A DNA stretch of 64,000 nt from an uncultured Mycoplasmataceae bacterium (GTDB taxonomy: Bacteria; Bacillota_I; Bacilli_A; Mycoplasmatales; Mycoplasmoidaceae). Position 1 is the first letter of the stretch. The number at the start of each line of letters is the position of its first letter. The stretch lies in NCBI GenBank assembly GCA_949282725.1, contig CASDPP010000003.1, positions 68,289 to 132,288 on the forward strand, in the 5' to 3' direction. The notes beneath the pieces are model-generated. The model did no database searches. It was not told where the DNA came from and saw nothing but the letters and a program-made list of their open reading frames with translations. Made by a program: the position numbers and the translations under genes. This document shows positions 3,687 through 62,231 of the stretch, piece after piece.

Positions 3687-5045
3687 ATGATTGATCTTAA
3701 AAAATTAAATGATCAGTTGGAAGAATTAAAACAAATCATTAAAACTAGTGATTCTGATTTTTTATTTTTTAATGAATTTATTAGTCCTTTAGTAATTAAT
3801 GACATAAAAAATAATAATATTATTATTAAAACTGTTAGCGATTGATCAAAAGTTAATTTAACTAACAATTATAAGCAACAATTTGATCAATTTTTTAGCC
3901 AAAAAAATAATGAAAAAATGAGCTGTTGTTTTGTTGGTAAAAACGAACAATTTAATGAAACTAAATTTGATGAAAATATAGTTCATGCTAATGTTTCTAA
4001 ACCAATAGGTTTAAATAAAAATTTTACATTTGATAATTTTGTTGTTGGTGGTTTTAATAAAACAGCTTTTAATGCATGCAAAACATTATTTAATAAAAAA
4101 ATTATGTGGAATCCTATATTTATCAGTGGAGATGTAGGGTTAGGAAAAACACATTTATTGCATGCTATTGGCAATGAATTTCATAAACTTTATCCTGAAA
4201 AAAAGATTAAATATATATCAGCTGATAATTTCATTAGAGAAATATATAATGCTCTTTCAAAAGACGCTAACACATTAGAAAGAGTAAAGGAAGAATATGA
4301 ATCGATGGATTTATTTTTATTAGATGATATCCAATTTTTAGAAGGAAAAGAAAAAATTAATGAAATCTTTTTTAATTTATTTAATAAAAATATCCAAGAT
4401 GGTAAAATTATTGTTATGACATCTGATAAAGATCCTAGTTATTTAAGAAATGTTGAGGATCGAATTAAATCTAGAATTCAATCTGGTTTATTTATTAAAA
4501 TAAAGTCACCTGAATTATCTTCTGTTAAATCTATTTTTGAAAAAAAAGTAAATGAATATGAAACTTCTTATATTTTTACACAAGATGCAATTGATTATAT
4601 TTGTCGTAGAAATGTTAGTGATATTAGAAAACTAGAAGGATTTATTAATCGAATTTTATTTTATGCAATTAATAATTTACCACCTAATGCAGTTATCACA
4701 CTAGATATTGTTAAAAATAATACGGAAGTTGAAAAATATGAAATGATTAAAAATATTGGATATGACATTGACCCAAGACAAGTTATTGAAATAGTATGTA
4801 ATATTTATAATGTTTCATCAGATTTAGTTACATCTAAAAGCAGATTAAAAAATTTAAATACTGTTAGACATGTTTGTATGTACATACTAAAAAGAAAATT
4901 TAATATGCCATATAACCAAATTGGTTCTTATTTTTCAGGCAGAAATCACTCTACTGTTTTAGAAGCTGTTGAAAAAATTAATGTGTTAATGGAAAAAGAC
5001 CCGAATTTAAAACAGTTTATTGAAAATATTTATAAAAAAATATAA
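3687..5045 (+). CDS. dnaA: chromosomal replication initiator protein DnaA
   Basis: Track ORF 3918..5045 has the AAA+ Walker A ([15 protein letters not shown]) and the C-terminal DnaA-box-binding region ([11 protein letters not shown]). An in-frame ATG at 3687 extends it 77 codons through one TGA. Confidence 0.9.
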
Positions 5046-5050
5046 TTTTT

Positions 5051-6310
5051 TTATATCTTAATTGTTTTTTTTCTTCTGATAATAAATCAAATTCCTAAAC
5101 TAATTAAAGATAAAACAATAGCTGCTATTCCTAATGATAACCCTAAAATTAAATTTAAGTTGTTGTCTTCTTGTTGTGAATTAACATTTAAAGTAATTGT
5201 TTCAGAATCAACATAAATACTTGTCGAACTATTTGTCGCCTTTAATTTGAATTTATATGTTCCTTCAACACATTGATCTGTTCAATATAATGATCCTTGA
5301 TTATCAATTGACAGCCAATCTGGTTTATCCCCTTCATTCATTACAATTTCTCATTGATCTGGGTCTAATAATTGACTATTAATAGAGTATTTTTCTGATC
5401 CTGATTGATTTTTTAAAGTATTTATATTTATGTTACCTTGTACTTGAAACGATTGAAATAATGAAATAATAGTAATTTGTTCTGCCGATGTTTTTTCATT
5501 GCCTAAATTAAAACCTTTTATTTGAAATGTGTATATACCTTCTGGTACTTGATTTCAATTAATTATTCCATCTGAAATTGACAAACCTTCTGGTATTTGT
5601 GTTGTTTGTTTTATTGGAACTAATGATCAATTTGTAAATTTAGTGATTGTTTCTGGACTAAATCCACTATAAGTAAATTTGTTAGTTGTTGATCCTGATT
5701 CTGTTGGTTTGATTTCAATTTGACTAAAATCACCTGCTATAGTTGCTTGAGCAGAATCATAACTTCATTCATCCACATTGCTTGCTTCAAAACCAAAATT
5801 CAACGCTGATGTATAATCATTTTTTGAATTACTTGGTACATATATTTTAAATAATGTAGATCCGTATCAATTTTGTCCAAATGATGGAATTTGTGTTGAT
5901 GAAAAAGCTATTTCACTAATTTGTGTAGGATTAAAAGCTTGTTGTCCGATATTATTTAATGAATTAGGTATCATTATATCACCTGATAAATTTGAACATC
6001 CAGCAAATGAATTAATTCCAATAGAAGTTAAACTTGTAGCTTGAGATAAATCTAACGAAATAAGGTCTGGTGTATTATAAAAAGCCAAATCTCCGATTGC
6101 TGTTATATTAGAATTTACTTTTAGCATTCCTTCGCCTGAGACGTATCCTGTGATTGTTGTCCCGTCAACAGTTACAGTAATATCACCCATAACTTCATTC
6201 CCATTAGTGGTGTTTTGGATATGAATTTTTTTTGAATTGTTTTGAATGTTTGTATTAACTAATATCGGACTAAATAATAATAGTGAACTAAGAAATGTAA
6301 TTTTTTTCAT
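5051..6310 (-). CDS. BspA-like leucine-rich-repeat surface protein with two Ig-like repeats and a C-terminal membrane anchor
   Basis: N-terminal signal-like MKKITFLSSLLLFSPILV is followed by LRR_5-type repeats (ITAIGDLAFYN..SLTSIGINSFAGCSNL..LNNIGQQAF). After TGA read-through come two He_PIG-like units (IPEGLSISDGIINWNQVPEGIYTFQIK and KPDWLSIDNQGSLYWTDQCVEGTYKFKLK). It ends in a hydrophobic helix plus RRKK. 5051..6310 is exactly 420 codons. Confidence 0.65.
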
Positions 6311-6588
6311 AATTTAATAAATTAAATTATAAACTATTTATTTGTTTATTGTTATTTATGATTGTTGTAAATAATTATAATTTTTATATTTTTTTATTAT
6401 TTGAAATTTTAGTTGTATAATATTTCTAACCTGGAAACGTTTTACAGGGAAAAAAATAAAAAATTTAACAAGAAGGCCTCTAATTAAGATTTTGATAAGA
6501 TTATAATCGCATAAATAATGATTTTAATTATCTTAATTCAAAAGTCTAAATCTTGCATAAAATTTCCTTCCTGTTTAAATTTTTTTTT

Positions 6589-6750
6589 GCTCTTTTTTTC
6601 CAAAGAGCACCGCTCTTTAAATCATTTTTTGCCAGTCAAAAAATGATATAATCTCCCACCGGGAGAAAAAAAAGACAAAAATTTTTTTGGCTTCGGGCGT
6701 GGCGCGGAAAATCGTTTCCGCAAAAATCGCGTAGCGCATTTTTGGCTGGA
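6589..6750. other. GC-rich cluster of perfect hairpins, possibly a structured RNA or miniature repeat element
   Basis: GCTCTTT(6589-6595)/AAAGAGC(6602-6608)/GCTCTTT(6612-6618) form two mutually exclusive hairpins. ATCATTTTTT(6621-6630)-GCCAGTC-AAAAAATGAT(6638-6647) is a 10-bp stem. TCTCCC-ACC-GGGAGA lies at 6652-6666 and GCGGAAA-ATCG-TTTCCGC at 6704-6721. By hand count, 6689..6752 is about 58% G+C in a very AT-rich context. Confidence 0.3.
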
Positions 6751-6757
6751 GCAAATT

Positions 6758-7237
6758 TTATATTTTCATCCGATAAATTAAATGAATATAATCTAAAATT
6801 TCTACATATGTTTCATTTGCTTTTTTATCTGAAAATTTTTTTTTATTATTTCAATTATTAAATTTTGTTTTTGTCTCTTCACAACATTTTAAATATGTAG
6901 ACCATATTTTTTCTTCCACATTTTTATCTCTTAAAAAAATATTTCTTGATTGATCATTATTTGAATAATCAAATTGTTTGTTTGGGTGAACAAAAAAATC
7001 TCTTCATTCTTTTATTCTTTTTGAATTTAAAATTTTTTTTCCTAAGTTAAATTTTTTTATAATGTCGTTTAAGTTAATTAAAATGGTTAAAAATAAAAAA
7101 TTTGATGCAAAATTTAAAAGATAACTATCTTTTTTTTCTTTACAATTATCTGAAATCATTAAAAGTATTAGATATAAATCTTTAGTTTCAATTAACTTTT
7201 GTTTATAAAATTCTTTTCTACTACTAGATTTATTCAT
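6758..7237 (-). CDS. hypothetical protein downstream of hsdR (Rx4H motif, possible HEPN-like)
   Basis: Track ORF 7004..7237 extends through TGA codons to TAA at 6758..6760, exactly 160 codons. It looks predominantly helical and contains WRDFFVHP (R-x4-H). It starts 25 nt after hsdR on the same strand. Confidence 0.5.
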
Positions 7238-7262
7238 ATTTTATTCTTTGTTTTAATATTTA

Positions 7263-10200
7263 TTAAAAACTAAAATCATCATCTGATATTGTGTAATATC
7301 TATCAAAAAAATTCTTAATTCTTTCAATTATTTTATTTTTTGTATTAAATCTTACTTTTTCTTTACTAAATCTAGATAATGGTGGCATAATCTTGGCAAT
7401 ATCTACACCATTTGTTTCAATTTGTCCTTTTTGAAAAGAATTTGACATAAATTTAATAGTTTCTTCTTTATTTAAATGTTCTTCTGAAATTATTTTTAAT
7501 AATTCTTCTCATCTTTTTTTTCTAATATATTGTCTAAATTCACCATAAACTTCGTTTGTTTTATTTAATATTTTTATAAATTCCAGAATTAAATCTTTTT
7601 TATTTCTAAGTTGAATATTAGAATCCAAAATTTTGTTTATGTTAACCAATATTTCTTTATCGTTTGTTTTTGTATATTTATTTAATAAATTTAAGATGTA
7701 ATCTATATTAACATCTTCCTGTTTGATAAGTTCTATTTCAAAAACTATATCATCAGTGACATCTTCTTTGTCAACGTGTTTTCTATATTGTTCATAAATA
7801 TCTAAATAAATAGATTTGTAATCTTGTCATTCTCTTTCTGTTAATATTTGATCGTTTTCGAATTCATCAAAACAACTTAAAATGTTTCTTACTTTTAATA
7901 TTTGACCGTAAAGAAAAATAAAATCTTTTTTATTTCTTTCTCCTATTATCTCTTTACCAATTGGATAAATATTTTTTAATTTTTCAATAAGTTTTTTGTA
8001 ACCTATAAATTCTTGACCTTTATAACTGTATCCATAATAATATTCATCATAAGTTTTTAAAATAACAATGTTTTTAGAGTCTTTATTACCAAATAATAAA
8101 AGAGCTTTATTTAAATTTTCCTCAAGATTTCTAAAACATATTATGTTACCAAATTTTTTAATATTGTTTAAAATACGATTTGTTCTTGAAAATGCTTGTA
8201 TTAAACCGTGATATTTAAGATTTTTATCTACTCATAAAGTATTTAATGTTGTTGCATCAAACCCAGTCAAAAACATATTAACAACTATTAATAGATCTAG
8301 TTCCTTGTTTTTCATTCTCATAGAAACATCTTTATAATAGTTTGAAAAATTACTTCCTGCATCAAATGACGTTCCGAACATTTTGTTGTAATTACTTATA
8401 GCATTTTCTAAAAATTCTCTTGAATTTTTGTCTAATCCATCTACACTATCACTATTTTCATCTTCAATAATTTCATCTTCTCCTTCATTTGGATTGTAAC
8501 TGTATATTAAACCTATTTTTAAATTGTGTTGAATTGATTTAAATTTAGAATAATATGCTTTAGCTAGTTCTATATCACCGACAGCAAAAAGAGAATTAAA
8601 TCCTGATAAACTAACTTCTTTCTTTTTTTCTCCTATGTTTCTGTTTTTTACTAATTTATTTATATTTGTTACTTGTTTAAATGTGTAGTTTTCACTATGT
8701 TTTGTATATTGATCAAAATGTTTTAAAATATAGTTTACAACATTAGTTATTCTTTCATCGTTATGTAAAACTTTTTTGTTGTCAATAGCATATACTTTTT
8801 TATCTAATATGTTTGATTTTCCTTTAAAAGTATTAATATAAGTTAATTTAAAAGGTAAAACATTTTCATCGTCAATTGCATCTATGATTGTGTATGAGTG
8901 TAGTTGTTCTCCGAATAAATCTTGAGTTGTTTGATAGTGAATTAAGTTTTCTTTAAATATCGGAGTTCCAGTAAAACCAAACATGTAATATTTTTTGAAT
9001 TTGGTTCTAATTTGTTTATGCATTTGTCCAAACTGACTTCTATGACACTCATCAAAAATAATAACAACTTCTTCATTATATATGTCGTGTTTAGAATTCT
9101 TTTTAATGAATTTATCTAATTTTTGAATTGTTGTTATGATGATGTTTGAATCAGGATCTTCTAATTGTTTTTGTAATATTTTTGTATTAGTATTTGAGTT
9201 AGCACAACCTTCTTGAAATCTGTCATATTCTCTCATTGTTTGATAATCTAAATCTTTTCTATCAACAACAAATAATACTTTTTTTATATATTCAAGTTGT
9301 GTTGCTAAAATAGCAGTTTTAAAACTTGTTAAAGTTTTACCACTTCCTGTTGTATGTCAAACATATCCACCAGATCCTTGTTTTCCATATTTTTTGTAGT
9401 TATGAGATAATGCTATTTTATCAATTATTCTTTCTGTGGCTACTATTTGATATGATCTCATTACTAATAGTCTTTCATCTGAAGTAAAAACACAATATTT
9501 AGTAATTATGTTTAGAATTGTGTGTTTAGAAAAGAATGTTTTTGTAAAGTCTGATAATGATTTAATTTTATTATTTTTACTATCTGCTCAATAATTAGTG
9601 AATTCAAATGTATTATTTCTTTTCTTTGTTGAGTTTTTTACATGTTCTTGTCTTGTTGTATTTGAATAGTATTTTGTCAATGTACCATTTGAAATTACAA
9701 ATATCTGAACATAATCAAATAAACCCTTACCAGATCAAAAACTATCTCTTTTATATCTAGTTATTTGATTAAATGCTTCTTGTAAACTAACTCCTCTTCT
9801 TTTTAATTCAATATGAACTAATGGTAATCCATTAACTAATATAGTTACATCATATCTATTTTTATGTTTACCATCATTATTTTCATATTGATTAATTACT
9901 TGTAAAGAATTGTTGTGAATATTTTTTTTATCAATTATATAAATGTTTCTTTCTTGACCATTATCTAATTTAATGTTTTTTACTCAATCTAATTGAATTC
10001 TTTTACTTTTTTCAACAATGCTATCTTTATTATTAGAAATAAAAGAATCAAAGAATAATTTTCATTCTTTTTCAGAAAATTTATGTTTATTTAATCTTTC
10101 AATTTGATTACGAAGATTTTGAATAAGTTCTTCTTCATTTTTAATAAATAAATAATCATAACCTTGTAGTTTTAAGTTTTTGATGAATTCTTTTTCTAAA

Positions 10201-10301
10201 TTTTCCTCACTTTGATGAGAAGTTTGTTTATCTGTTTTTTGTTTAAATTCTGTAACTACTGTACTTTCGTTATTTTCTGATATTGTTTTTATTTTGTTCA
10301 T
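7263..10301 (-). CDS. hsdR: Type I restriction enzyme R subunit (HsdR)
   Basis: Track fragments 10062..10301, 8232..9236 and 7263..7448 share one frame, and 3039 nt is 1013 codons. Hand translation of 9237..10061 shows only TGA interruptions. Motifs seen: [38 protein letters not shown] (Walker A) and [10 protein letters not shown] (DEAH box). Confidence 0.9.
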
Positions 10302-10304
10302 AAT

Positions 10305-10838
10305 TTATTCTTCCTCAAATGTTAATAATTTATTTCTATAGTATTCGTATTGTTTAGTTCTCATTTCTATTTCTGCTGGTATTCCTTCAGATAAGTCATT
10401 TACTAATGTATCAAATTTGTCTAAAATTTCTACTATTTCTTTTTGTTTTTCTTGTGGTGGAATTGGAATTTTTATATCTAAAATCCTTTTCATGCTTGGG
10501 TGTTTTATACCAGCACCAACAAAACAATTTTCTATAAAATTTTTATTAGATTGTAAAAAATAATAAATATATTTAGTGTTAAATTTATTTTTATCGATAG
10601 AAACACAGATATTATTTAAAGAATTTAAAAATTTTCCATTTCAATATTTAATATTTGCTGTGCCTCCTGTAGGTATTGTAATAACTTCATTCTCATAATA
10701 ATTTTTACAAATTTTATCATTTGTATACCCATTCAAAAAACCAGTTGATAATAATTTAATATCACCATCTTTTTGTATTAATTTTTTTAATTGTTTAGAA
10801 CTAATAGATTTAATATTTATTATTTTTTGTTGTTTCAT
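10305..10838 (-). CDS. hsdS: Type I R-M specificity subunit, C-terminal half (TRD2 plus distal conserved region)
   Basis: Fragments 10641..10838 and 10305..10493 are in frame across one TGA. It ends with IPIPPQEKQKEIVEILDKFDTLVNDLSEGIPAEIEMRTKQYEYYRNKLL, the conserved HsdS coiled-coil region. It has its own ATG at 10838, preceded by AAGGAATAGACAAA. Confidence 0.85.
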
Positions 10839-10873
10839 TTTGTCTATTCCTTGAAATTTTTTATTTCATTTTG

Positions 10874-11461
10874 TTATTTCTCACAAAGAATATCATCTAA
10901 TCCCCCCCCGTTATCTTTTTCTTTATCAAAATCTAATAATTTATTTCTATAGTATTCATATTGTTTCTTTCTAGCTGTAAGCTCTGCTGTAAGCTCTGCT
11001 GTAAGCTCTGTAAATTTATCCAGAATATCTACTATTTCTTTTTGCTTTTCTAAAGGTGGAATTGAAATAATTAAATTTTCAATTACCTTCTTTTTAATGG
11101 AAGGAATTGTTGTTGTAGTTTTTTTAGAAATTAAATAGTTTTCATTATTTTTAAGAAAATAATATAAAAATTTATTTAATAATTTATTTTCGTTTCTTGA
11201 TTTAATTAAAAAACAATGATAACCTAACCAAAATTTTGTTTTAATAAAATCAACATTACCCGCTGATCCACCTTCTGCTATTGTTATTGAATTTTCTGGT
11301 GCATTATATGTACTAAGATAACCTGTGGGTTTGGTCCCTCCATTTATTAATGGATATTCTCCTGATTTTTTAGTTTTATTTTTATTTACTTGTTGACCTT
11401 TTATTATTTCACAACAATCAATAATTTTTAAATATTCAATATTTTTACTATTTATTTTCAT
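10874..11461 (-). CDS. hsdS: Type I R-M specificity subunit, N-terminal half (TRD1 plus central conserved region)
   Basis: 195-aa ORF ending IPPLEKQKEIVDILDKFTELTAELTAELTARKKQYEYYRNKLLDFDKEKDNGGGLDDILCEK. It terminates 8 codons after the G8 tract (minus-strand sense). Confidence 0.85.
   Translation of the reverse strand: MKINSKNIEYLKIIDCCEIIKGQQVNKNKTKKSGEYPLINGGTKPTGYLSTYNAPENSITIAEGGSAGNVDFIKTKFWLGYHCFLIKSRNENKLLNKFLYYFLKNNENYLISKKTTTTIPSIKKKVIENLIISIPPLEKQKEIVDILDKFTELTAELTAELTARKKQYEYYRNKLLDFDKEKDNGGGLDDILCEK
10902..10909 (-). repeat. homopolymeric C8 (G8 in gene sense) at the hsdS TRD1/TRD2 junction
   Basis: Direct read at 10901-10910 is tccccccccg. A +1 length change reads GGG GGG GGG ATT AGA TGA TAT TCT TTG TGA GAA ATA ACA AAA TGA AAT AAA AAA TTT CAA GGA ATA GAC AAA ATG AAA CAA. 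This has no TAA or TAG and is in frame with the downstream half. Confidence 0.9.
10974..11009 (-). repeat. three perfect tandem copies of a 12-bp unit (gctgtaagctct) encoding (TAEL)3 in the HsdS central conserved region
   Basis: Direct read gives units at 10974-10985, 10986-10997 and 10998-11009. The protein reads ELTAELTAELTA. Confidence 0.95.
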
Positions 11462-11463
11462 AT

Positions 11464-13013
11464 TTATAATTTTTTAATTATTTGTTCTATTTTTGTTCTT
11501 AAATTATGTTGAGTTTTAACTATTCTATTTATTTTGCTATTTAATTCGAATATATCTATTTTTTCAGTGGTTATTTCTTTTTTTATGTAAGTATTTACCG
11601 CAATGTTATAATCATTTTCTTTTATTTCATCTAATGTTGCTAAATAAGCAAAATTTTCTTCATTTTTTCTTGATTTAAATATGTTAATAATTTTTTCAAT
11701 ATTTTCTTTTGATAATTTATTTTTTGTTTCTTTTCTAACAAATTGATTGCTTGCATCAATAAATAAAATATCATTATTATTTTGTTTATTTTTCTTTAAA
11801 ACAATAATACAAGTAGCTATTGTAACACCAAAGAAAAGATCTGAAGGTAACAAAATAACTGTATCAATAAAATTATTATCAATTAAATATTTTCTTATTT
11901 TTTGTTCTGCTCCTTCTCTATATAAAACACCAGGAAACTCAACTATTGCACACGTTCCTTGAGGAGATAATCAACTTAACATATGCATCACAAATGCTAA
12001 ATCTGCTTTACTTTTAGGTGCTAAAACTCCTGCTGGACTAAATCTTGAATCATTAATTAACAACGGATTACTATCTCCTGCTCATTTAACTGAGTATGGC
12101 GGATTTGAAACTATCGCATCAAATGGTTCATCATCAATATGCTTAGGATCTTCTAATGTATCTCCTAATTTAATACTAAATTTATCATAATTTACATCAT
12201 GAAGAAACATATTAATCTTACATAAATTAAATGTTGTAATATTTTTTTCCTGACCATAAAATCCTTTTTTAACATTTTCTTTTCCTAATATTTTTGCAAA
12301 ATTTAAAAGCAATGATCCTGAACCACATGCTGGATCATAAACTTTATTAACATATTTTCTATCAACTATTGTTAATCTAGTAAGTAATTCACTAACTTCT
12401 TGTGGAGTAAAGAATTCCCCCCCGACTTACCTGCTTCACTAGCATACATAGTCATTAAAAATTCATATGCATCTCCAAAAACATCTATGTTATTTTCTTT
12501 ATAATTTCCCAATTTAAGACTATCAATCGCATTTAACAATTTAATTATTTTTTTATTTCTTTCATTTACAGATGAACCTAATTTATTACTATTAAAATCT
12601 ACATCTGCAAATAATCCTTTCATACTTTCTTCTGAATCATAACCAATAGCAGAATTTTCTATACTTTTAAAAATGTTAGATAATGTAATATTTATATCAT
12701 CATCATTTTTAGCATTTTTTACAATATTACTAAAAAGTTGAGAAGGTAAAATGTAAAATCCTTTTTCTTGTATTGTTTCTTCTCTACCGTATTCTGCTTG
12801 TTCATCAGAAATTTTTTCATAATTAAAATTTACATTACCTGCTTTTTTTTCTTGATTATTAATATACTCAACTAAATTTTCTGAGATGAATCGATAAAAT
12901 AATAATCCTAAAACATATTGTTTAAAATCTCATCCATCTACTGAACCTCTTAACTCATTAGCTATTTTTCAAATAATTTTAAATAATTCTTTTCTTTCTA
13001 TTTCTTTAGACAT
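11464..13013 (-). pseudogene. hsdM: Type I R-M methyltransferase subunit HsdM, frameshifted at a C7/G7 tract (apparent phase-OFF allele)
   Basis: N-terminus MSKEIERKELFKIIWKIANELRGSVDGWDFKQYVLGLLFYRFISENL. Fragment 12372..12623 is in frame with ATG 13013 and ends ..EAGKSGGNSLLHKK. Fragments 12082..12312 (with the NPPY motif SNPPYSVK) and 11464..11853 are in the +1-shifted frame. Total length is 1550 nt, which is 3n+2. With G8 the junction reads [34 protein letters not shown]. Confidence 0.85.
12417..12423 (-). repeat. homopolymeric C7 (G7 in gene sense) inside hsdM
   Basis: Direct read is agaattcccc/cccgactt. It sits exactly at the frame break between the two hsdM reading frames. Confidence 0.9.
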
Positions 13014-13014
13014 A

Positions 13015-13245
13015 ATTTTTTTATTAATAATATTATATAATATTAACAAAACTATTTATATAGTTCAAGGCAATTTTAAAATTCTAATTTCATAGAATCT
13101 TCTTACCTTTCTGTTTTGCCTTGTTTTTTTTATATATCTGTTGTTGAAAACTTTGTTGGAATTTTGATTTTATATATTTATATATAATAATAAAATTAAA
13201 ATAAAATAAATTATAAATATAAAATATTTATAATATATATAACTT
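13015..13245. other. candidate oriC / DNA-unwinding region upstream of dnaN
   Basis: 231-bp non-coding spacer. TGTTGTTGAAAA and TTTGTTGGAA at 13139-13160 include TTTTCAACA, two mismatches from the DnaA box TTATCCACA. About 90 bp of almost pure A/T follows (13161-13245). The usual dnaA-flanking spacers are only 59 bp and 5 bp here. Confidence 0.3.
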
Positions 13246-14361
13246 ATGAAATTTTCCATCAATACTAAATACTTTTTAAAAAATTTAAAATATATTCAAA
13301 GTAATTCATCTTCTAATACTAATCCTATTTTAGATGGAATTTATATTAATGTAAATCAAGATGATGTAACTATTACCTCATCTAATGAAAAAGATACTAT
13401 TAAAATAAAATTAGATCAAAATCTAACTATTCATTCGACAGGAAATATATTAGTCAAAACAAGTTTATTTATTGATTTAATATCTAAAATAAAATCAGAT
13501 ATAATTGAAATTAATCAATTAGATACATCAGTTATTAGAATAACAGGAAATAAAGTTGTAGCTGATTTAAACCTCCTAGACTCAAATTTATATCCATCTT
13601 TTGATTTTTCAATTGAAAATGGACAACAAATAACTATACCATCATATTTAATTTCTAAAATTAAACATAAAATAATACCTTCTATTTTAATGAACAGTTT
13701 TGATAATAACGTTTTATCTGGTATTTTATTTGATTCTACAAGATTAGAAAATAAATTAGAAATTGTAGGAACTGATTCATATCATTTATCTTACATCAAT
13801 GAAAACTTTAATGGACCTAAACTTAAATTTGTTTTAAGTAAGAAATTTATTGATTTAATATCTGAAATAATTTCAGATACTGATATTAAAGAAATTAATT
13901 TAATTATAAAAGAAAAAAATATTATTCTTAACTTACCTAATTATCAAATTTTATCTAGATTATTTGATAATGAATATCCTAATATTTCTAAAATTATTGA
14001 AACAAAAAATCAATATCATTTTGAAATAAATAAAGATGATTTAATTGATGCTATTAACTACGCTACAACAATACGAACAAATGAAAATAAATCATCTTCT
14101 TTACAATTTGATATTAAAGAATCGGAATTAGTTGTTTCATTGCAAAGCATGGAAGGTAATGTTCAAAGTAATATAAATATAGAAAAAAGTAATATTAATC
14201 CAACAATATTTTATTTCAATTATAAATATTTAATTGATATTTTTAAATCTATTACATCTGATAAAATTCTTATTGAATATCAAAGTAATATTCAACCAAT
14301 TATTGTTAAAGATTTAAATGATGATTCTTATATTGGTATAACATTACCAATAAAACAATAA
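13246..14361 (+). CDS. dnaN: DNA polymerase III beta sliding clamp
   Basis: 371-aa ORF of the right size and in the conserved position upstream of gyrB-gyrA. It shows a three-domain clamp-like pattern ending YIGITLPIKQ. Confidence 0.8.
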   Translation: MKFSINTKYFLKNLKYIQSNSSSNTNPILDGIYINVNQDDVTITSSNEKDTIKIKLDQNLTIHSTGNILVKTSLFIDLISKIKSDIIEINQLDTSVIRITGNKVVADLNLLDSNLYPSFDFSIENGQQITIPSYLISKIKHKIIPSILMNSFDNNVLSGILFDSTRLENKLEIVGTDSYHLSYINENFNGPKLKFVLSKKFIDLISEIISDTDIKEINLIIKEKNIILNLPNYQILSRLFDNEYPNISKIIETKNQYHFEINKDDLIDAINYATTIRTNENKSSSLQFDIKESELVVSLQSMEGNVQSNINIEKSNINPTIFYFNYKYLIDIFKSITSDKILIEYQSNIQPIIVKDLNDDSYIGITLPIKQ

Positions 14362-34941: not shown

Positions 34942-35778
34942 ATGTTTGAATCTTTAAAAATTAAAATTAAAATTGGTGATATTCCAATTATTTGATGTGG
35001 ACAAAATAAAAATCCTAACAAGATATTTTTTATTTTAAATGTTGCTAATGCACCAAAAGAAATTGTTAAGATGTATGATTTAAAAAATATCAATACAGAA
35101 AACAATTTACTTGTTTCATTAGATTGACCAGGAATAGGCGAAAACCCATTACAACCATCAAAAAAAATAAGATACTATTTGGATTATATTAATCAAATAA
35201 TTAATTATTTTAAAGATAAATACCCAAATAGTAAATTTAATTTAATTGGAGAATCTTTTGGAGCAGACATAGCTATTTTATATGCAAAAAAATATCCTAA
35301 ATCAATTGATACTTTAATAGCAAGCAACCCCCCTTTTGGATTAAAAAATCCAAAAAAAAGCGAGGAAAGTGATTCAACATTTTATATGTTTTGAACTCAT
35401 CTTTTTACTTTATTATTTAATAAAGAATATAAAACTACACCAGCTGGTTTTGAACAATTAACTAATAATGAATTACTTAAAAGAATGTTTTTAATATCTA
35501 GAAAAAAAACACAATCTTCTAGATTGCATGTTGCCGCTTGAAAGGCAATGATGTTAGCTAAGAAGGCAACAATTAAAAGATTTAAAAACGATTTAAAACC
35601 TAATTCATATTTCTTTTTTGCAAAAAATGAATTTTATTGTAAAAAAAACCAACCAATAGTAAAAAAGATTAAGCAATGTAAAACAACAAAAAACAAAATA
35701 TTTGAATTTAATAGCTCAGAACATTTTTTGTTTTTTGATCCACAAATAGCAAAACAAATTTGAGAAAAAATATTGTAA
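34942..35778 (+). CDS. alpha/beta hydrolase (lipase/esterase GXSXG)
   Basis: The nucleophile elbow is LIGESFGADIAILYA. Three in-frame segments are joined by TGA. An in-frame C6 tract lies at 35328..35333. Confidence 0.6.
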
Positions 35779-54810: not shown

Positions 54811-54886
54811 GGACCTGTAGCTCAGTTGGTAGAGCAATTGACTCTTAATCAATGGGTCCAGGGTTCGATCCCCTGCGGGTCCACCA
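54811..54886 (+). tRNA. tRNA-Lys (anticodon CUU), CCA encoded
   Basis: Hand-folded cloverleaf has acceptor GGACCTG/CGGGTCC, anticodon stem ATTGA/TCAAT with loop CTCTTAA, and T loop TTCGATC. Confidence 0.85.
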
Positions 54887-54898
54887 ATTAAAAATTAA

Positions 54899-54925
54899 AT
54901 GGTACATTCATGTACCATTTTTTTA
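54899..54925 (+). terminator. rho-independent terminator after tRNA-Lys
   Basis: ATGGTACA-TTCA-TGTACCAT followed by T7. Confidence 0.8.
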
Positions 54926-54957
54926 TTTTATAGTTAAAAAAAATTATAATTTTATTA

Positions 54958-56775
54958 ATGGACAAAAAATATATTAGAAATTTTTGTATTATTGCTCATA
55001 TAGATCATGGTAAATCTACTTTAAGTGATCGTATTATTGAACTTACACAAACTATCGATAAAAGAGAAATGCAACCACAAATTTTAGATAGTATGGATAT
55101 TGAAAGAGAAAGAGGAATAACCATTAAATTAAATGCTATTCAATTGCAATATCATTGTAAAAAAAATAATCATGATTACATATTTCATTTAATAGATACC
55201 CCAGGACATATTGACTTTACTTATGAAGTTTCACGAAGTTTAGCTGCTTGTGAAGGTGCAATATTAGTTGTTGATGCAACACAAGGAATAGAAGCACAAA
55301 CGCTTTCTAATGTTTATTTAGCATTAGAAAATGATTTAACAATTATTCCTGTAATTAATAAAGTTGACTTACCTAATGCAGATATTGAAGAAACAAAAAA
55401 AGAAATTGAAAAACAATTAGGTCTTGATACATCAAAAATTTGTTGTGTATCAGCAAAAACAGGATTAAATGTTGAATCAATTTTAGAAGAAATAATTGAA
55501 ATGATTCCTCCACCAGAAGGCGATGATAACAAAAAACTTCAAGCTCTAATATTTGACTCATATTTTGATCAATACAAAGGTGTTGTTTGTTTAGTAAGAA
55601 TTAAAAATGGAAAAATTAAAGTTGGCCAACATATTAAAATGATGTCTTCTAATAAAGATTTCATTATTAGTGAACTTGGTATTAGAACTCCTAAAATTCA
55701 AAATAAGCAAGAATTATTAAGTGGTGAAGTAGGATGAATTGCTGCTAATATTAAAACAGCAAAAGATATTAGTGTTGGTGATACAATTACAGATTTTGAT
55801 AATCCGGTAGAACAACCACTTAAAGGATATAAAAAAATATTACCAATGGTTTTTTGCGGTATTTATCCAGTTGATAATTCTAAATTTACAGAACTTAAAG
55901 AAGCGATGGCAAAAATCTCATTATCTGATTCATCATTACAATATGAATATGAAACATCTCAAGCATTAGGATTTGGTTTGCGTTGTGGTTTTTTAGGATT
56001 ATTACATATGGATGTTATTAAAGAAAGAATTAGAAGAGAATTTAATATTGATTTAATAATGTCTGCACCAAGTGTAAAATATGAAGTATTATTAACAAAT
56101 AAAGAAACTATTATGGTAGATAACCCAACAAATCTTCCTGATAGAACTTATATTAAAGAGATAAGAGAACCTTTTGTTAAAGCATTTATTGTTGTTCCAG
56201 AACAGTATATTGGGGCAATAATGGAACTATGTCAATCATTTAGAGGAAAATATAAAGATTTAGAATATTTAGATTCTATTAGATATCGTTTAGTTTATGA
56301 AATTCCATTAGGAGAAATTATTTATAGTTTCTTTGATAAACTAAAAACCGTATCTAAGGGTTATGCGACATTAGATTATGAATTTATAGAATATCGTAAA
56401 GAAGACTTAGTAAAAATTGATATCATGTTAAATGGAAATAAAATAGATGCATTAAGTTTAATTACACATCGAGATTTTGCTTATCAAAAAGCAAAACAAA
56501 TGTGTGAAAAATTAAAACAATATATTCCTAGACAACAATTTGAAGTTCCTGTTCAAGCAGCAATAGGGGGTAAAATTATTGCTCGTGAAAATATTAAAGC
56601 AATGTATAAAAATGTTTTAGCAAAGTGTTATGGTGGCGATGTTAGTAGAAAGAAAAAACTTCTTGAACAACAAAAAGAAGGTAAGAAAAGACTTAAATCT
56701 ATTGGTAATGTTTCATTACCAAGTGATATTTTTATAAAAGTCTTTAGCGACGAAGAACCAAATCAAGATAATTAA
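54958..56775 (+). CDS. lepA: elongation factor 4 (LepA)
   Basis: [20 protein letters not shown] and DTPGHIDF are present. Two fragments are in frame across one TGA. The C-terminal LepA-specific region is [22 protein letters not shown]. Confidence 0.95.
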
Positions 56776-56823
56776 AAAATTTACAATAATATAATTATTA
56801 AGTTTATAATATATAAACCTATT

Positions 56824-56900
56824 CGGGAAGTAGCTTAGCTTGGTAGAGCACTTGGTTTGGGACCAAGGGGTCGCAGGTTCGAATCCTGTCTTCCCGACCA
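56824..56900 (+). tRNA. tRNA-Pro (anticodon UGG)
   Basis: Acceptor CGGGAAG/CTTCCCG, anticodon stem CTTGG/CCAAG with loop TTTGGGA, and a CCA end. Confidence 0.85.
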
Positions 56901-56901
56901 T

Positions 56902-56978
56902 GGCAGGGTATCTCAGTTGGTTAGAGAACTCGGCTCATACCCGGGGTGTCGTGAGTTCGAATCTCACCCCTGCTACCA
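56902..56978 (+). tRNA. tRNA-Met elongator (anticodon CAU)
   Basis: Anticodon loop is CTCATAC and the 3' end is GCTACCA. The G1-U72 pair and overall sequence resemble Mollicutes elongator tRNA-Met. Confidence 0.7.
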
Positions 56979-56984
56979 TGTATA

Positions 56985-57061
56985 GGAGCTTTAGCTCAAT
57001 TGGTTAGAGCCCCCGACTCATAATCGGTTGGTTATAGGTTCGAGTCCTATAAGCTCCACCA
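56985..57061 (+). tRNA. tRNA-Ile2 (CAU, presumably lysidine-modified)
   Basis: Acceptor GGAGCTT/AAGCTCC and anticodon loop CTCATAA. The body (TTTAGCTCAATTGGTTAGAGC ... GTCCTATAAG.TCCACCA) resembles tRNA-Ile(CAU) rather than tRNA-Met. Confidence 0.6.
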
Positions 57062-57115
57062 AATAAATTATTAACGTGCTTTTTTATTGTTATAATAAAA
57101 TAAGCATGTTACAAT

Positions 57116-57208
57116 GGATGCTTACCCAAGTCCGGTTGAAGGGATCGGTCTTGAAAACCGAAAGGTACAGAAATGTACGCGGGGGTTCGAATCCCTCAGC
57201 ATCCGCCA
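57116..57208 (+). tRNA. tRNA-Ser (anticodon UGA), long variable arm
   Basis: 93 nt. The anticodon loop is CTTGAAA, the long extra arm is GGTACAGAAATGTACG, and the T loop is TTCGAAT. Confidence 0.85.
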
Positions 57209-57211
57209 TAT

Positions 57212-57288
57212 CGCGGAGTAGAGCAGCTTGGTAGCTCGTCAGGCTCATAATCTGAAGGTCGTTGGTTCAAATCCAGCCTCCGCAACCA
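57212..57288 (+). tRNA. initiator tRNA-fMet (anticodon CAU)
   Basis: CGCGGAG...CTCCGCA ACCA gives the C1xA72 mismatch typical of bacterial initiators. The anticodon loop is CTCATAA. Confidence 0.7.
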
Positions 57289-57290
57289 AA

Positions 57291-57366
57291 GGTCCTGTGG
57301 TGTACCGGTTAACATGCCTCTCTGTCACAGAGGAGATTGCGAGTTCGATTCTCGTCAGGACCGCCA
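57291..57366 (+). tRNA. tRNA-Asp (anticodon GUC)
   Basis: Acceptor GGTCCTG/CAGGACC, anticodon stem CCTCT/AGAGG with loop CTGTCAC. Confidence 0.85.
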
Positions 57367-57370
57367 TAAT

Positions 57371-57446
<76 letters not shown>

Positions 57447-57459
57447 TTTAGCAAAAATA

Positions 57460-57486
57460 AAAGTAGGCTTTATTGCTTACTTTTTT
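57460..57486. terminator. bidirectional rho-independent terminator (tRNA cluster / IspD-like gene)
   Basis: AAAAGTAGGC-TTTATT-GCTTACTTTT has an A run on one side and a T run on the other. Confidence 0.6.
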
Positions 57487-58150
57487 ATTTTTTTAAATCT
57501 TGTGAAATAGTTATCTTAAAATTATTAATTTTACCTAAAAACATATTTTTAGAATTTAGTTTTAGTTTCATCATTCCTATTAGATCTTTAGATTCATAAT
57601 CAATTCTTGAAAAGTTTAATAATTTACCGACAAAAGATTGGGGTGTTTGAATTAAATATTTATTAGAACGTTGAATGTAATTGTATTGTTTTTTATTTAA
57701 TTCAACAACAGCATCATGTACAGGATAATAAGCAGTAGAAAATTGATATTTTTTAGCAACTTTAATCGATTCATCTATTAAAAAATTATCAACATTAACA
57801 CGAGCAATATCGTGTGTAACAAAAATTGATTTATTAAACTCTTGTTGGTATTTATTTTTAATTACTTTTAAACATTCAATTAATGAATGCTGTCTAGATT
57901 TTTTTGAACCAGAAACAACAATTAATTTATTTTTATATTTAGGATAAAGTTTCTGTATTTTATTTTTAAAAAAAGAAACAAAATCAGGATTAACAACAAA
58001 ATAAACAAAATCAATATTTTTATTTTTTAAAAAAACATTTAATGAATAAGTAAATAAAAATTGATCATTATATTTAATTAATGATTTGATTTGATTTTTA
58101 TTATTCATTCTTGTGCCAGCACCTGCTGCTAATAAAATTCCAAAAGTCAT
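57485..58150 (-). CDS. IspD/TarI-family nucleotidyltransferase (cytidylyltransferase-like)
   Basis: The N-terminus MTFGILLAAGAGTRM is the signature of the IspD/TarI nucleotide-diphospho-sugar transferase fold. Length is 221 aa. Confidence 0.6.
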   Translation of the reverse strand: MTFGILLAAGAGTRMNNKNQIKSLIKYNDQFLFTYSLNVFLKNKNIDFVYFVVNPDFVSFFKNKIQKLYPKYKNKLIVVSGSKKSRQHSLIECLKVIKNKYQQEFNKSIFVTHDIARVNVDNFLIDESIKVAKKYQFSTAYYPVHDAVVELNKKQYNYIQRSNKYLIQTPQSFVGKLLNFSRIDYESKDLIGMMKLKLNSKNMFLGKINNFKITISQDLKK

Positions 58151-58207
58151 TTATATCAATATTATAAAGAAAAAACATCTACATAAAATAGATGTTAATT
58201 TGTTAAA

Positions 58208-58284
58208 TGGCGCACTCTATAAGAGTCGAACTTACAACCTTTTGATCCGAAGTCAAATGCTCTATCCAATTGAGCTAAGAGTGC
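58208..58284 (-). tRNA. tRNA-Arg (anticodon UCG)
   Basis: The reverse complement is GCACTCTTAGCTCAATTGGATAGAGCATTTGACTTCGGATCAAAAGGTTGTAAGTTCGACTCTTATAGAGTGCGCCA. The anticodon loop is CTTCGGA. Confidence 0.85.
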
Positions 58285-58631
58285 TTATATTCTTTATATA
58301 ATCTATCAAGAGTTTTTTTGTGTAGGTTTTTATAACCAGCAGCTGATGGAATAATTTCTTTATGATATTTTAATAATTTAGGATTTAATCTTTTGTAAGA
58401 AAAAGTATATGAATTATTTACTGAATCAGATTTAATTAAATAAAACTTATACTTTTTACCTACTGTAAAAAAGACATTTAAATCTTTAATTAAATAATCT
58501 GATACCTCTGAAATGTGACAAATTCCTCTAATACCAGCATATTCTAATAAAACATATGATGGCATTATTGCAATAACTTCACATTCACAAATTTGATTTT
58601 CTTTAAAAAAATCATTAAAATTATTTTCCAT
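58275..58631 (-). CDS. S1 RNA-binding domain protein
   Basis: 118 aa with an S1/OB-like N-terminal half (ICECEVIAIMPSYVLLEYAGIRGICHISEVSD). Its last 10 nt overlap the 5' end of tRNA-Arg. Confidence 0.5.
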   Translation of the reverse strand: MENNFNDFFKENQICECEVIAIMPSYVLLEYAGIRGICHISEVSDYLIKDLNVFFTVGKKYKFYLIKSDSVNNSYTFSYKRLNPKLLKYHKEIIPSAAGYKNLHKKTLDRLYKEYKHS

Positions 58632-58657
58632 CTTAATTAAATTATAATATTAAAAAT

Positions 58658-58903
58658 ATGGCCAACAGTAAAGAACTTAAATTAGTTAATGAAATTAAAG
58701 ATTTATTAGAAACAGTAAGAATTTATATTAACAATGATGGCGGGGATATTGAATTTATTTCATTTAAAAACAAAATATTAACACTAAAAATTTTAGGTGC
58801 ATGTGTTGGATGCCCATTTATTAACGTAACATTCGATCAAGGCGTAAAACAAATTTTTTTAAATGAATTTAAAGGAAAAATCAAAGATGTTATCTTTATT
58901 TAG
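58658..58903 (+). CDS. NifU-like (Nfu C-terminal domain) iron-sulfur cluster protein
   Basis: DGGDIEFISFKNKILTLKILGACVGCP contains the CxxC Nfu motif. Confidence 0.7.
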   Translation: MANSKELKLVNEIKDLLETVRIYINNDGGDIEFISFKNKILTLKILGACVGCPFINVTFDQGVKQIFLNEFKGKIKDVIFI

Positions 58904-60251
58904 ATTCTTTATTTTTAATAACATCAAGGAAATGATCAAATAATTTTTGATGTTTGATAGAAGTTTCCACCATATCTAAATTGTTATTTTTAGTAAAGAA
59001 CTCTTTAATTTGTTCTTTTGTGTCAGAATATAATTTAGACATTTTTTCATAGAAAGAATCAAGATCTTTTTCAGTAATTTCAATTTTGTTTTGTTCAATT
59101 AATTGTTGAATTATTAGAATAATTGAAATATTTCTTTTAGAAGATTTATCTAAAAATTCTTCAACTTCTTTTTCATTTTTTAAACCTAATTGACTTGAAT
59201 AAATATCTTTAACATCTATGTTAAATGATTTAGCTCTTTTTTCATATTCATATTTTAAACGATTACGTTCTTTTTCAAGCAATCTACTAGGTAAATATGA
59301 GAACTTACTTTGTTCATAGAATTTCTCAGTAATATCATTTATAGTTTTATCTTTTAATTGCAATTCAGCACGATCTAAAATTAATTTTCTTGCATATTTG
59401 TTTAAATCATCTTTATTTTTAACATTTGGTAAATTTAAAGATTTAATATACTCATCATTAATTTCTGGTTTTTTAATTGATTTAATTTCTTTAATTTTAA
59501 TTTTAAAAGTAGCGGGTTTATTTTTTAAAGATTCTTCAAAATAATCTTCAGGGAATTTTACATTAATTTCTTTTTCTTCTCCTTCTTTAAGACCAATTAA
59601 TTGTTTTTCAAAACCAGGAATGAATGAATTAGAGCCAACGGTTAACTCATAATTTGTCGCACTACCACCATCAAATTCTTTACCATCAACATATCCAGTA
59701 AAATCAATAAAAGCAATGTCGCCATTTTTAATTGGTTCTTTTGAACTTGAAAACATTCAATCCTTTTTTAAAATACGGTCAACTTCAAATTCTACTTCAG
59801 CATCTGTAATTACAGGTTCTTCATATTTAATTTTTAATTTTTCAATTGTAGGTATTTCAATTTTCGGATAATTTTGGAATTCATATTTCAATACTAAAGA
59901 ATCAGGAGTTACTTCTTCAATTGAAGTAAGCATTGTATCAATAATTTCATGATTATCATTTAATTCATTTGAATTCATAAATTCAAAATGAATAAGTTGA
60001 GAAATATTATTTAAAGCATTTGCTAAAACATCTTTTGTGTTAATGTGTTTTTTTAATATTTGATCAGGAACTTTATTTTTTCTAAATCCCGGAACAGATA
60101 TTTTTGATTTGAATTTATTGAAAACTCGTTCTTGTTGTTTTTTTCATTCATTTTTGTCAACAAAGATTTTATAAGTGGTATCATTATCACTTGTGTGTTT
60201 TTTAACTTCTGATATATATTTTCTTTCAATTTTTTTAGTATTATTTTCCAT
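58896..60251 (-). CDS. tig: trigger factor
   Basis: 452 codons in one frame across TGA. The N-terminal ribosome-binding motif is SVPGFRKNKVP. The central FKBP-type PPIase is DFTGYVDGKEFDGGSATNYELTVGSNSFIPGFE. Confidence 0.9.
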
Positions 60252-60267
60252 AATTAGTAATTATAAC

Positions 60268-61011
60268 TTAATGCAATATTTTTTTATCTTTTTGTGTAAT
60301 TACTTTTATTCATGATTCAAAATCAGGAGATAGATCTACTTCATTTCCAAAACTTTTTAAAATATATTTAGAAATATTTAGAGCTAATTTTTTAATATCT
60401 GTTGTTCAATTATTTAAAAAATAATAATCAAAAATATCTTGGATAACAAAATAAGCCACATTATTAAGTGAAGGTTCTTTAATAAAAATTGATGAAACTT
60501 CATCAAATAATGATTTATAAAAAGGATCTTCATATGGCTCAGTAGGAGAATTATTAGTAACACGATTCATTTGTTTAGTTGATGAATTTAAAATATCAAA
60601 TTCAAAACTTAATTCGCATTCTTTTAATATTCCTAAAATAAAACGTTTAGTGTTATTTTTTACTTTTTCATCTAAAAATATTTGTTTGAAAACAGATAAA
60701 TCGGTTTCATCAAAAGCCCCCATATATTTAGTTAAATATAAAGTCAAAACATCAATATTAACATGATGATCGCGATAAACATGTGATAAAAACTCTAATT
60801 TAGACATATTTTGATATTTTGAAAGTTCTTTTTGAGATGAATATAAATTTTTAATGGCTATTTGTAGTTCTTGTAAAACATCAAAATATTTTGAAGGAAT
60901 GTATGGTTGGTTCATTTCTTCTTGAATTATTTCATACGCTTCTTGAATTTTTTTATTATCAATTAGCTTATATATTTTATTTATTAGTTCTTCGTAATAT
61001 TTGTCATTCAT
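60268..61011 (-). CDS. hypothetical protein
   Basis: Track ORF 60406..61011 extends through TGA to TAA at 60268, 248 codons. I recognise no family with confidence. Confidence 0.45.
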
Positions 61012-61012
61012 A

Positions 61013-61543
61013 TTAACCTAAAATATGTAGCTTTTTAACATCCATAAAACGATCTAGTTTATTTTCTTTAAATAATTGTTTTATTTTTGCTGCTGTATTA
61101 TTAATTTTATTAATTAATAATTGAGGATATTTAAAATTTTTTGAATTTTCTAAAAATTCTTTAGAATCTAGTAAGATCATTTTTTTATTATATGTAACAT
61201 TTCTTGCAACATAATCTAAATCAAAATCAATATATTTTAAAACACCATCTTCGACAATTGGTGGGCTAGCAAGATTAATATATAGTTCATAACCAGTATT
61301 TTTTTTACGAAAAATAATATTGAATCATTCATCTTTTAGAAAGAATCAAATCATTTTATATTTAATTTTAGAATGATAATGATTTTTAGTTCCTGAATGA
61401 TTTGTTATTATTTTTGAGTTATTGCCTTTGAAACAATATAATTCATTATTCTCAAAAACTAATTCAGGAAATTCTCAGGTACGATAAAGTCAACCATTAA
61501 ATTTGTATGCATGTATAGATAATTTTTTATGATTTTTTTTCAT
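61013..61543 (-). CDS. DUF402 / Ntdp-like nucleoside tri- and diphosphatase
   Basis: Hand translation gives MKKNHKKLSIHAYKFNGWLYRTWEF...YINLASPPIVEDGVLKYIDFDLDY, the DUF402 signature. Length is 177 codons. It was missed by the track because of frequent TGA codons. Confidence 0.6.
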
Positions 61544-62105
61544 TATTCTCAAAATATATTTTTTTAATACTAGGATATACAATCAAGATTATCGGGAAAT
61601 CTATCAAATAAATTATTCCTATAATTTCAACATTAATTAGAAATGATGCTCATCAACTATTGTTGGTATATCAAAGATAACCACACAAAGTATGTAAAAA
61701 TAGCTTTATACTAAAGATAATTAAAAGTGTAATTGCTAGAAAAACTATTTCGAGCGTTAATTTATATTCCTTAATTTTTAATTTGTTAAAGAACAATTTT
61801 ATTATATCATGGTGATAAATTAATGGAAAAAATATATATAGAGAAATAATATATTCTAATAAGAAATCTAAAAAATTTACACTTGCTGGTCAGACAACAC
61901 ACAACAATCAAGGTGTAACCAACAAATAAAAAAAAGCATATTTTTTACTAGAAATACATAATAATGATAAAGAAAATATTATTAAATATATATCTATTGG
62001 ATAACCGTTTAATATTAGAAAAAAATTAAAGACAAATTTTACTACTAAAGTAAGAGCCATTAATATTGATATTAAACAAAGATAATAAACATTAGATTTT
62101 TTCAT
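61527..62105 (-). CDS. ThiT-like thiamine transporter S component (putative)
   Basis: 193 codons across TGA codons, with about 6 TM helices. It lies immediately downstream of a TPP riboswitch. Confidence 0.5.
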
Positions 62106-62220: not shown

Positions 62221-62231
62221 TAATTTTTTAA

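Follow-up and report, generated by a model that had tools for sequence, protein, structure and literature searches.

Phase variation of Type I restriction–modification (R-M) systems through simple sequence repeats (SSRs) is an established kind of switch, and such repeats occur in 2% of the hsdM genes and 7.9% of the hsdS genes in REBASE (Atack et al. 2020, PMC7383803). Here, we describe an hsdM–hsdS–hsdR operon on a 64-kb stretch of contig CASDPP010000003.1 (the window, by which we mean the whole 64,000 nt analyzed) from an uncultured mycoplasma, in which hsdM is frameshifted at a run of seven G residues, and which is very probably a phase-variable Type IC system, switched by SSRs and sampled in its OFF state. 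The closest known system is NgoAV of Neisseria gonorrhoeae (PMC9577141, PMC6789123), which is likewise Type IC, and of which the hsdS half of the present locus is, as judged from its predicted products, an architectural twin. In NgoAV, as here, a poly-G run that closes the half of hsdS encoding the first target recognition domain (TRD1) and the central region splits the gene in two (hsdS1 and hsdS2), with half and full-length products of 208 and 410 aa in NgoAV and of 195 and 385 aa in the present operon. A change of one G fuses the NgoAV halves and shifts the methylated motif from GCAN8TGC to GCAN7STCA (PMC9577141), and the copy number of a four-residue LEAT repeat correlates with an N6 or an N7 spacer (PMC6789123).

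Repeats within hsdM that toggle a Type I methyltransferase, and with it restriction, are likewise on record, in Haemophilus influenzae (CGAGA repeats) and Mannheimia haemolytica (ACAGC repeats) (PMC7383803). A Mollicute host, Mycoplasma agalactiae, has phase-variable poly(G) and poly(GA) methyltransferases (a CpG methyltransferase and a Type III mod), among which a mid-gene poly(G) run is tied to truncation, with lengths of 6–11 that vary within cultures by fragment-length analysis (PMC9465063). An engineered half-HsdS of EcoR124I that retains the N-terminal TRD only (EcoR124I-NT) forms an active enzyme, with the symmetric site GAAN7TTC (PMC2877798). When the present locus is compared with EcoR124I/EcoR124II (R124/3), the HsdS central region ILDKFT-LTAELTAEL-RKKQY-YYR is found to be common to both. 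Two as against three TAEL copies in EcoR124 reportedly give an N6 as against an N7 spacer, a result attributed to Price et al. in 1989.

The hsd operon and its three repeats

The coordinates of the operon, its repeats, and its surroundings are collected in Table 1. An earlier note on this stretch, made from its letters alone, had described hsdM as out of frame at a C7 tract, and had taken this for a phase-OFF methyltransferase in an operon with hsdS and hsdR intact and no other lesion. Its account of hsdM could be reproduced throughout, in that the run is at exactly the claimed position, and the frame that starts at ATG 13013 encodes a normal N-terminal domain as far as YASEAGKSGG and then derails (NSLLHKKLVNYLLD; stop codon at 12374–12372), with the remainder of HsdM, including the C-terminus, open in the +1-shifted frame to 11464 (stop codon at 11464–11466). 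The span 13013..11464 is 1550 nt, or 3n + 2. A run of G8 yields a product of 516 aa and a run of G5 one of 515 aa, the in-frame (ON) lengths being G5, G8, and G11, with G7 and G9 out of frame (OFF).

The further claim that one added G restores a canonical HsdM is also borne out. The repaired protein of 516 aa matches the TIGR00497 hsdM equivalog model end to end (1–515 of 515, 750 bits), carries the Pfam domains HsdM_N (PF12161) and N6_Mtase (PF02384), and aligns to the EcoR124II HsdM (7bst_D) with E = 6e-172 and a 12-residue motif that is identical; this exact sequence is itself present in a public collection. The run lies in the codons TCG GGG GGG G of the motif AGK-S-G-G-E, 40% into the gene.

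Table 1. Features of the hsd operon and of its surroundings in the window
Feature	Coordinates	Strand	Remarks
hsdM (Type IC methyltransferase subunit), frameshifted	11464..13013	-	5' open reading frame (ORF) 13013..12372, 213 aa
hsdM homopolymer, G7 on coding strand (C7 on +)	12417-12423	-
hsdS (specificity subunit), split	10305..11461	-	hsdS' 11461..10874 and hsdS'' 10838..10305
hsdS homopolymer (second run), G8 on coding strand (C8 on +)	10902..10909	-	hsdS halves part directly after the run
12-bp perfect tandem repeat, (TAEL)n	10974..11010	-	3.1 copies; Tandem Repeats Finder score 74, 100% matches
hsdR (restriction/translocase subunit), intact	7263..10301	-	single ORF of 1012 aa in genetic code 4
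hsdM–dnaN divergent intergenic region	13014..13245		AT-rich; presumed operon promoter region
dnaN	13246-14361	+
dnaA	3687-5045	+
BspA-type LRR_5 surface-protein gene	5051-6310	-	in the dnaA–dnaN insertion
ORF of 159 aa	6758-7237	-	in the dnaA–dnaN insertion; no Pfam match
C6 run, third-longest G/C run	35328-35333
Thiamine pyrophosphate (TPP) riboswitch	62131-62223	-	64 bits

The supposition that hsdS is intact, and with it that the operon is free of any other lesion, proved to be wrong. The gene is split, just after a second poly-G run, into hsdS' (195 aa, with TRD1 and the central conserved region) and hsdS'' (177 aa, with TRD2 and the C-terminal conserved region). Only run lengths of 3n (G6, G9, or G12) fuse these halves, into an HsdS of 384–386 aa; the 385-aa product of G9, which is observed at full length in two of the related samples described below (L002 and L131), has two Methylase_S stretches in Pfam and hence a two-TRD architecture, and aligns to the EcoR124II HsdS (7bst_A), with both LTAELTAEL and the C-terminal conserved region inside the alignment. 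The run encodes GGG (..DKEKDN-GGG-IRW..) in the linker that joins the central conserved helix to TRD2, within a five-residue insertion relative to the EcoR124II HsdS. The third repeat, (TAEL)n, is the best-scoring tandem repeat of the window and is found in the central conserved region of HsdS, 65 nt upstream of the hsdS run. Thus, the premise of an intact hsdS was mistaken, and yet the second variable G run strengthens the case for phase variation that had been built on it.

In the case of hsdR, the single ORF confirms the description of this gene as intact. Its product matches HSDR_N, SWI2_SNF2/ResIII, T1R_D3-like, and EcoR124_C in Pfam (all E < 1e-40), as well as TIGR00348 (568 bits). With the domains of a Type IC system recognizable in the predicted HsdM, HsdS, and HsdR alike, the operon is assigned to the Type I R-M systems, family IC, and its sequence matches to the solved EcoR124II subunits leave no ambiguity.

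G/C runs of at least 7 nt are expected 0.04–0.10 times per 64 kb, and two were observed in the window, both of them inside the hsd operon; the hsdM and hsdS runs are the two longest G/C runs in the 64 kb. TCG accounts for 3.1% of the Ser codons and GGG for 7.3% of the Gly codons of the window, these being the rarest synonymous codons, and the probability that Ser-Gly-Gly is encoded as TCG GGG GGG is ∼1.6e-4. Of 41 Gly-Gly dipeptides in the long ORFs of the window, two are encoded by GGGGGG, and these are exactly the two runs.

The operon lies on the minus strand, in the order hsdM–hsdS–hsdR, between dnaA and dnaN, with gyrB and gyrA adjoining. The window has a GC content of 24.3% and reads TGA as a sense codon (Trp), and is therefore of a Mollicute-type genome; all ORFs were translated with genetic code 4, as code 11 breaks every gene at TGA. 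GyrB is ∼68–70% identical to the nearest named sequences, from Ureaplasma and Malacoplasma, with a best match overall of 79%, which points to an uncultured, Mycoplasmoidales-like mycoplasma, known from metagenome assemblies alone, as the probable host.

Run lengths in nine samples and in distant relatives

The locus was recovered from eight further samples by exact-sequence look-ups, with the same dnaN|hsdM–hsdS–hsdR synteny (Table 2). The sequences are all metagenome assemblies, and all run lengths are those of the assembly consensus. The samples were taken as independent on the basis of their accession numbers, and the pairs L002/L003 and L005/L006 from the European Nucleotide Archive (ENA) and Logan, which are probably the same samples, were each counted once.

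Table 2. State of the three repeats and of hsdR in nine samples of the species
Sample	hsdM run	hsdS run	TAEL copies	hsdR
Window	G7	G8	3	intact
L131 (ERZ16268069)	G7	G9	3	8-bp deletion
L009 (ERZ17292903)	G8	at least G8 (contig ends in run)	3	not covered
L002 (ERZ16268156)	G8	G9	3	intact (all ON)
L004 (ERZ16268089)	G8	G11	3	+1 A frameshift
L005 (ERZ16268105)	G9	G11	2	+1 A frameshift
L007 + L134 (ERZ17292901)	G9	G11	contig break in TAEL repeat	+1 A frameshift
L001 (ERZ16268080)	G8	G8	4	intact
L008 (ERZ16268162)	G9	G8	3	decayed

Between identical flanks, the hsdM run is G7 in two samples, G8 in four, and G9 in three, with G8 the commonest, while the hsdS run takes the lengths G8, G9, and G11 and the TAEL repeat two, three, or four copies. 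Three pairs of samples without any substitution are decisive here, because the background on which the repeats differ is invariant. The window and L009 have 0 substitutions over 2.3 kb and differ solely in the hsdM run (G7 vs G8); L004 and L005 have 0 substitutions over 11,783 nt and differ solely in the hsdM run and in one TAEL unit; and the window and L131 have 0 substitutions over 16,130 nt and differ solely in the hsdS run (G8 vs G9) and in the 8-bp hsdR deletion. Furthermore, the hsdM run varies inside each of three lineages that are 2–9% apart, and the changes are therefore recurrent. As is expected of an SSR contingency locus, a repeat within the ORF shifts the frame, and its length differs among identical or nearly identical genomes. 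The cross-strain comparison of the G tract that the earlier note had proposed thus shows that G7 is not fixed, an in-frame G8 being found in a sequence that is 100% identical over the region compared. In L002, where all three genes are ON, the operon encodes HsdM of 516 aa, HsdS of 385 aa, and HsdR of 1012 aa.

We note that both runs of the window lack exactly one G to be in frame, which would also be the outcome if the true lengths were G8 in hsdM and G9 in hsdS and both homopolymers had been under-called by one base, in sequences that all come from metagenome assemblies and are known at the consensus level. Such an artifact is nevertheless decidedly unlikely. The independent assembly of L131 has G7 in hsdM as well, yet calls the hsdS run G9; the assemblies agree over 11.8–16.1 kb save for the SSRs and one 8-bp deletion, and the A/T runs of at least 7 nt are identical between L004 and L005 in 26 cases out of 26. 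In addition, other samples depart from the in-frame length in both directions, with over-length runs (G9, G11) next to short ones, and the paired ENA and Logan assemblies that probably derive from a single sample (L002/L003 and L005/L006) are concordant. Three short contigs break exactly inside the TAEL repeat (end of L003, end of L007, and start of L134) and one inside the hsdS run (end of L009), at repeats that are shorter than the assembly k-mer (k87), breaks which are only suggestive of mixed repeat lengths inside single samples.

The variability of the run also bears on whether G7 could be functional as it stands, with full-length HsdM made because RNA polymerase slips, or the ribosome shifts frame, at the G run. 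Homopolymer runs can in general support RNA-polymerase slippage, and seven G residues are few for this to be efficient. At a recoding site one would expect a fixed length, whereas the genomic length here is variable, with the in-frame G8 the commonest state (four of nine samples); this contradicts recoding at a fixed G7, which we regard as highly improbable.

A separate observation concerns the G9 state of hsdM. In L005 (6569–7564, corresponding to the region downstream of ∼12445 in the window), an internal ATG (tATGctagtgaag) opens an ORF of 331 aa that continues across the run into the entire N6_Mtase domain without leaving its frame, and is predicted to encode an N-terminally truncated HsdM; this applies to G9 and not to the G7 of the window. 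Among the HsdS sequences, TRD1 of L001 and L008 is 82% identical to TRD2 of the window (L001 1628–2784 compared with window 10305–11461), and three distinct TRD1 alleles among the samples, together with this reassortment of TRDs, imply that specificity also evolves by domain shuffling.

Beyond the species, a scan of genome contigs with GCNGGNAARTCGGGGGGG matched at least 119 loci. Among the matches listed, nearly all are chance matches in GC-rich DNA, the only real hsdM sites are L019 and L125, and the species of the window is absent. Two scans of metagenome contigs of the Joint Genome Institute (JGI), one with the exact flank and G6 and one with a degenerate motif and G7, gave 0 matches. L019, a metagenome-assembled genome (MAG) of a distant member of the Mycoplasmataceae with HsdM 66% and HsdS 35% identical to those of the window, carries two in-frame runs at these very sites, with G8 at the hsdM codons and G9 at the position in the hsdS linker, and its HsdS has (LEAE)x4 where the window has (TAEL)n. 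L125 is from the cultured Mycoplasma enhydrae (NZ_JAOXHI010000001.1, reverse strand, ∼2905 and ∼3520), and has G7 at the same hsdM motif, where in-frame reading needs G8.

In the nearest non-Mollicute HsdM homologues (72% identity, 28–34% GC), SGG is encoded as AGC GGT GGC or as AGT GGT GGA. Two such Type IC loci that use the standard code (L138, at 5140, and L139, at 3877; 72% HsdM identity) have an hsdM without the run, and, in the hsdS linker behind a TAEL repeat, a G8 that is in frame (..PENPQGGAKW..). From this pattern, poly-G in the hsdS linker seems widespread in this Type IC family, and the hsdM run seems Mollicute-specific.

Maintenance, decay and a proposed mechanism

Both halves of hsdM are stop-free in their proper frames in the five lineage representatives compared, with ratios of nonsynonymous to synonymous substitution rates (dN/dS) of 0.04–0.09 upstream of the run and 0.27–0.63 downstream, that is, below 1 on both sides. 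No hsdM lesion outside the G run was found in any of the nine samples, even at 9% divergence. Similarly, setting the hsdS run to a 3n length restores an intact protein with both TRDs in lineages A and B and in L001 (lineage C), including cases in which the actual run is out of frame. Together with the variation in run length, the lesion-free hsdM and the dN/dS below 1 support the reading of the earlier note, namely that hsdM is phase-OFF rather than decayed.

A number of observations weigh against a reversible switch. The G7 state is common to the window and L131, which are one clone, and L131 also has the irreversible 8-bp deletion in hsdR, such that a stable OFF state with the onset of decay is possible for this clone. 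In relatives, hsdR has suffered three independent irreversible lesions (around window position 9726), comprising that of L131 in an otherwise identical clone, the +1 A frameshift of lineage B (L004, L005, L134, and L136), and deletions of 1 bp and 41 bp in L008, in which TRD2 of hsdS has decayed as well. In M. enhydrae, hsdM is frameshifted a second time, at a T7 run (in-frame reading needs T6), and is either doubly switched off or decaying. The share of ON runs, at four of nine for hsdM and two of eight for hsdS, is near the one third expected without selection on frame. Both G7 and G8, as found in the window, are below the 9-nt threshold for high-frequency switching of the REBASE survey (PMC7383803); relatives reach G9 and G11. 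Finally, switching within a clone, and its rate, are inferred from run lengths known at the level of the assembly consensus.

Taking these points into account, the operon could be decaying in this clone, with G7 as the first and effectively permanent hit at a mutation-prone site and without adaptive switching, and the OFF state of hsdM in five of nine samples would fit such a course. We consider this unlikely, however, as the same clone carries G8 in L009, hsdM is free of a second lesion throughout the nine samples and is constrained on both sides of its run, and an all-ON relative exists in L002. Decay also leaves unexplained why both runs use the rarest codons, and why both are conserved in position in L019, at 66% HsdM identity.

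The phase-variable system that we favor could operate as follows. Slipped-strand mispairing at replication would alter three repeats: the hsdM poly-G, the hsdS poly-G, and (TAEL)n. With G8, hsdM would be ON, and with G7 or G9 translation would end before the S-adenosylmethionine (AdoMet)-binding and catalytic domain. The Type I methyltransferase (M2S1) and endonuclease (R2M2S1) both require HsdM, and the window would therefore be fully OFF regardless of hsdS. In an hsdM-ON cell, the hsdS run would pick either a two-TRD HsdS (3n lengths) or a half subunit with TRD1 only (other lengths, including the G8 found here); by analogy with NgoAV and the engineered EcoR124I-NT, such a half subunit would dimerize and recognize a symmetric site, giving an NgoAV-like switch of motif. 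Likewise by analogy, the copy number of (TAEL)n would alter the spacer of the bipartite site. Slippage at repeats is far faster than point mutation, and populations would therefore mix OFF cells with ON cells of either specificity A or specificity B, the window representing the consensus of a mostly hsdM-OFF population. Runs of G7–G9 are plausible switches, because poly(G) of 6–11 nt varies in mycoplasma cultures, and reversal within the clone would be expected.

The recurrent loss of hsdR in relatives, with hsdM and hsdS retained and varying at their repeats, is a circumstantial pointer to a role other than restriction. The same pattern has been reported for Type III phasevarions (PMC1976455). 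We hypothesize that the system might act as a phasevarion, in which the methylation state would control the expression of a regulon. A wider proposal is possible but tentative: the locus would be a combinatorial switch with three dials, producing several methylomes and a null state from a single hsdS without a recombinase, both poly-G dials and the four-residue repeat being conserved in position across the Mycoplasmataceae. In such a scheme, the discarding of hsdR would mark a shift from defense to gene regulation, and the hsdM run would be a Mollicute innovation on a catalytic-domain motif that SSR surveys with a threshold of at least 9 nt would miss.

Directly 3' of hsdR, lineages B and C have two adjacent N6_N4_Mtase genes and an ORF of 428–435 aa (L001 6067–8951; L132 7452–10315; L134 3974–6837), in a place taken up in the window by the 159-aa ORF alone; the region looks like a variable defense or methylase islet. 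In the window, an insertion of ∼8 kb splits the oriC-proximal pair dnaA–dnaN (3687–13246), genes that are usually adjacent. A scan for sigma-70 promoters and terminators was uninformative at 22–24% GC, with 47 promoter-like sites against 57 expected. The C6 run, weighed as a possible additional switch on the sequence of the window alone, was dismissed, as it is in frame within an intact ORF; it encodes the N-P-P-F part of a GxSxG hydrolase-like ORF. The window also has ten tRNA genes (within 54811–62308, together with the TPP riboswitch region), seven of them clustered at 56.8–57.4 kb, and these and the riboswitch are ordinary housekeeping content.

Comparison with described systems

The fastest-evolving positions over 11–16 kb of this uncultured, host-associated Mollicute are the repeats that would set the state of Type I methylation and restriction. 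Runs of only 7–8 nt appear to act as switches here, which is shorter than survey cut-offs, and phase-variable methyltransferases may therefore be under-counted in AT-rich genomes, the more so as automatic annotation will label phase-OFF methyltransferase genes of this kind as pseudogenes. For users of MAGs, we would add the caution that a "frameshifted" hsdM near oriC may be a population state and is not necessarily an assembly error. With a putative ON/OFF control (hsdM) and a putative control of specificity (hsdS run and TAEL copies) in one operon, the locus offers a compact test case for defense bet-hedging as against epigenetic regulation.

In comparison to NgoAV, the difference lies primarily in hsdM. 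The hsdM of NgoAV has no repeat, and switching changes its specificity rather than turning it ON or OFF, whereas the second poly-G run in the present hsdM adds an ON/OFF layer. The host is also different, being here a Mollicute that uses genetic code 4, and the activity of the truncated HsdS is, in this case, a prediction. In contrast to the mononucleotide run described here, which falls on a conserved motif of the catalytic domain, 40% along the gene, the hsdM repeats of H. influenzae and M. haemolytica are pentanucleotides and mostly near the 5' end of the gene. M. haemolytica does have an hsdS G-run and an SSR-bearing hsdM, but in different systems, and not, as here, in one operon. The present hsdM run is under the 9-nt cut-off applied to REBASE (PMC7383803), and a screen of this kind would miss it.

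The poly(G) and poly(GA) methyltransferases of M. agalactiae are of Type II and Type III, whereas the present locus is Type I, and the Type I variation that has been described in Mollicutes (with hsdS inversion systems in Mycoplasma pulmonis and M. agalactiae) proceeds through recombination among several hsdS genes, or through AG repeats in hsdS (PMC7383803), rather than through poly-G in hsdM together with a single hsdS. The EcoR124 genes, for their part, have no homopolymer, and frameshift-based phase variation is not a feature of the E. coli systems. In the literature compared, a homopolymer at the conserved motif AGKSGGE of hsdM appears to be undescribed in Mollicutes, as does the combination, in one operon, of an hsdM homopolymer, an hsdS homopolymer, and a TAEL repeat, which we view as a modest architectural twist on the known systems.

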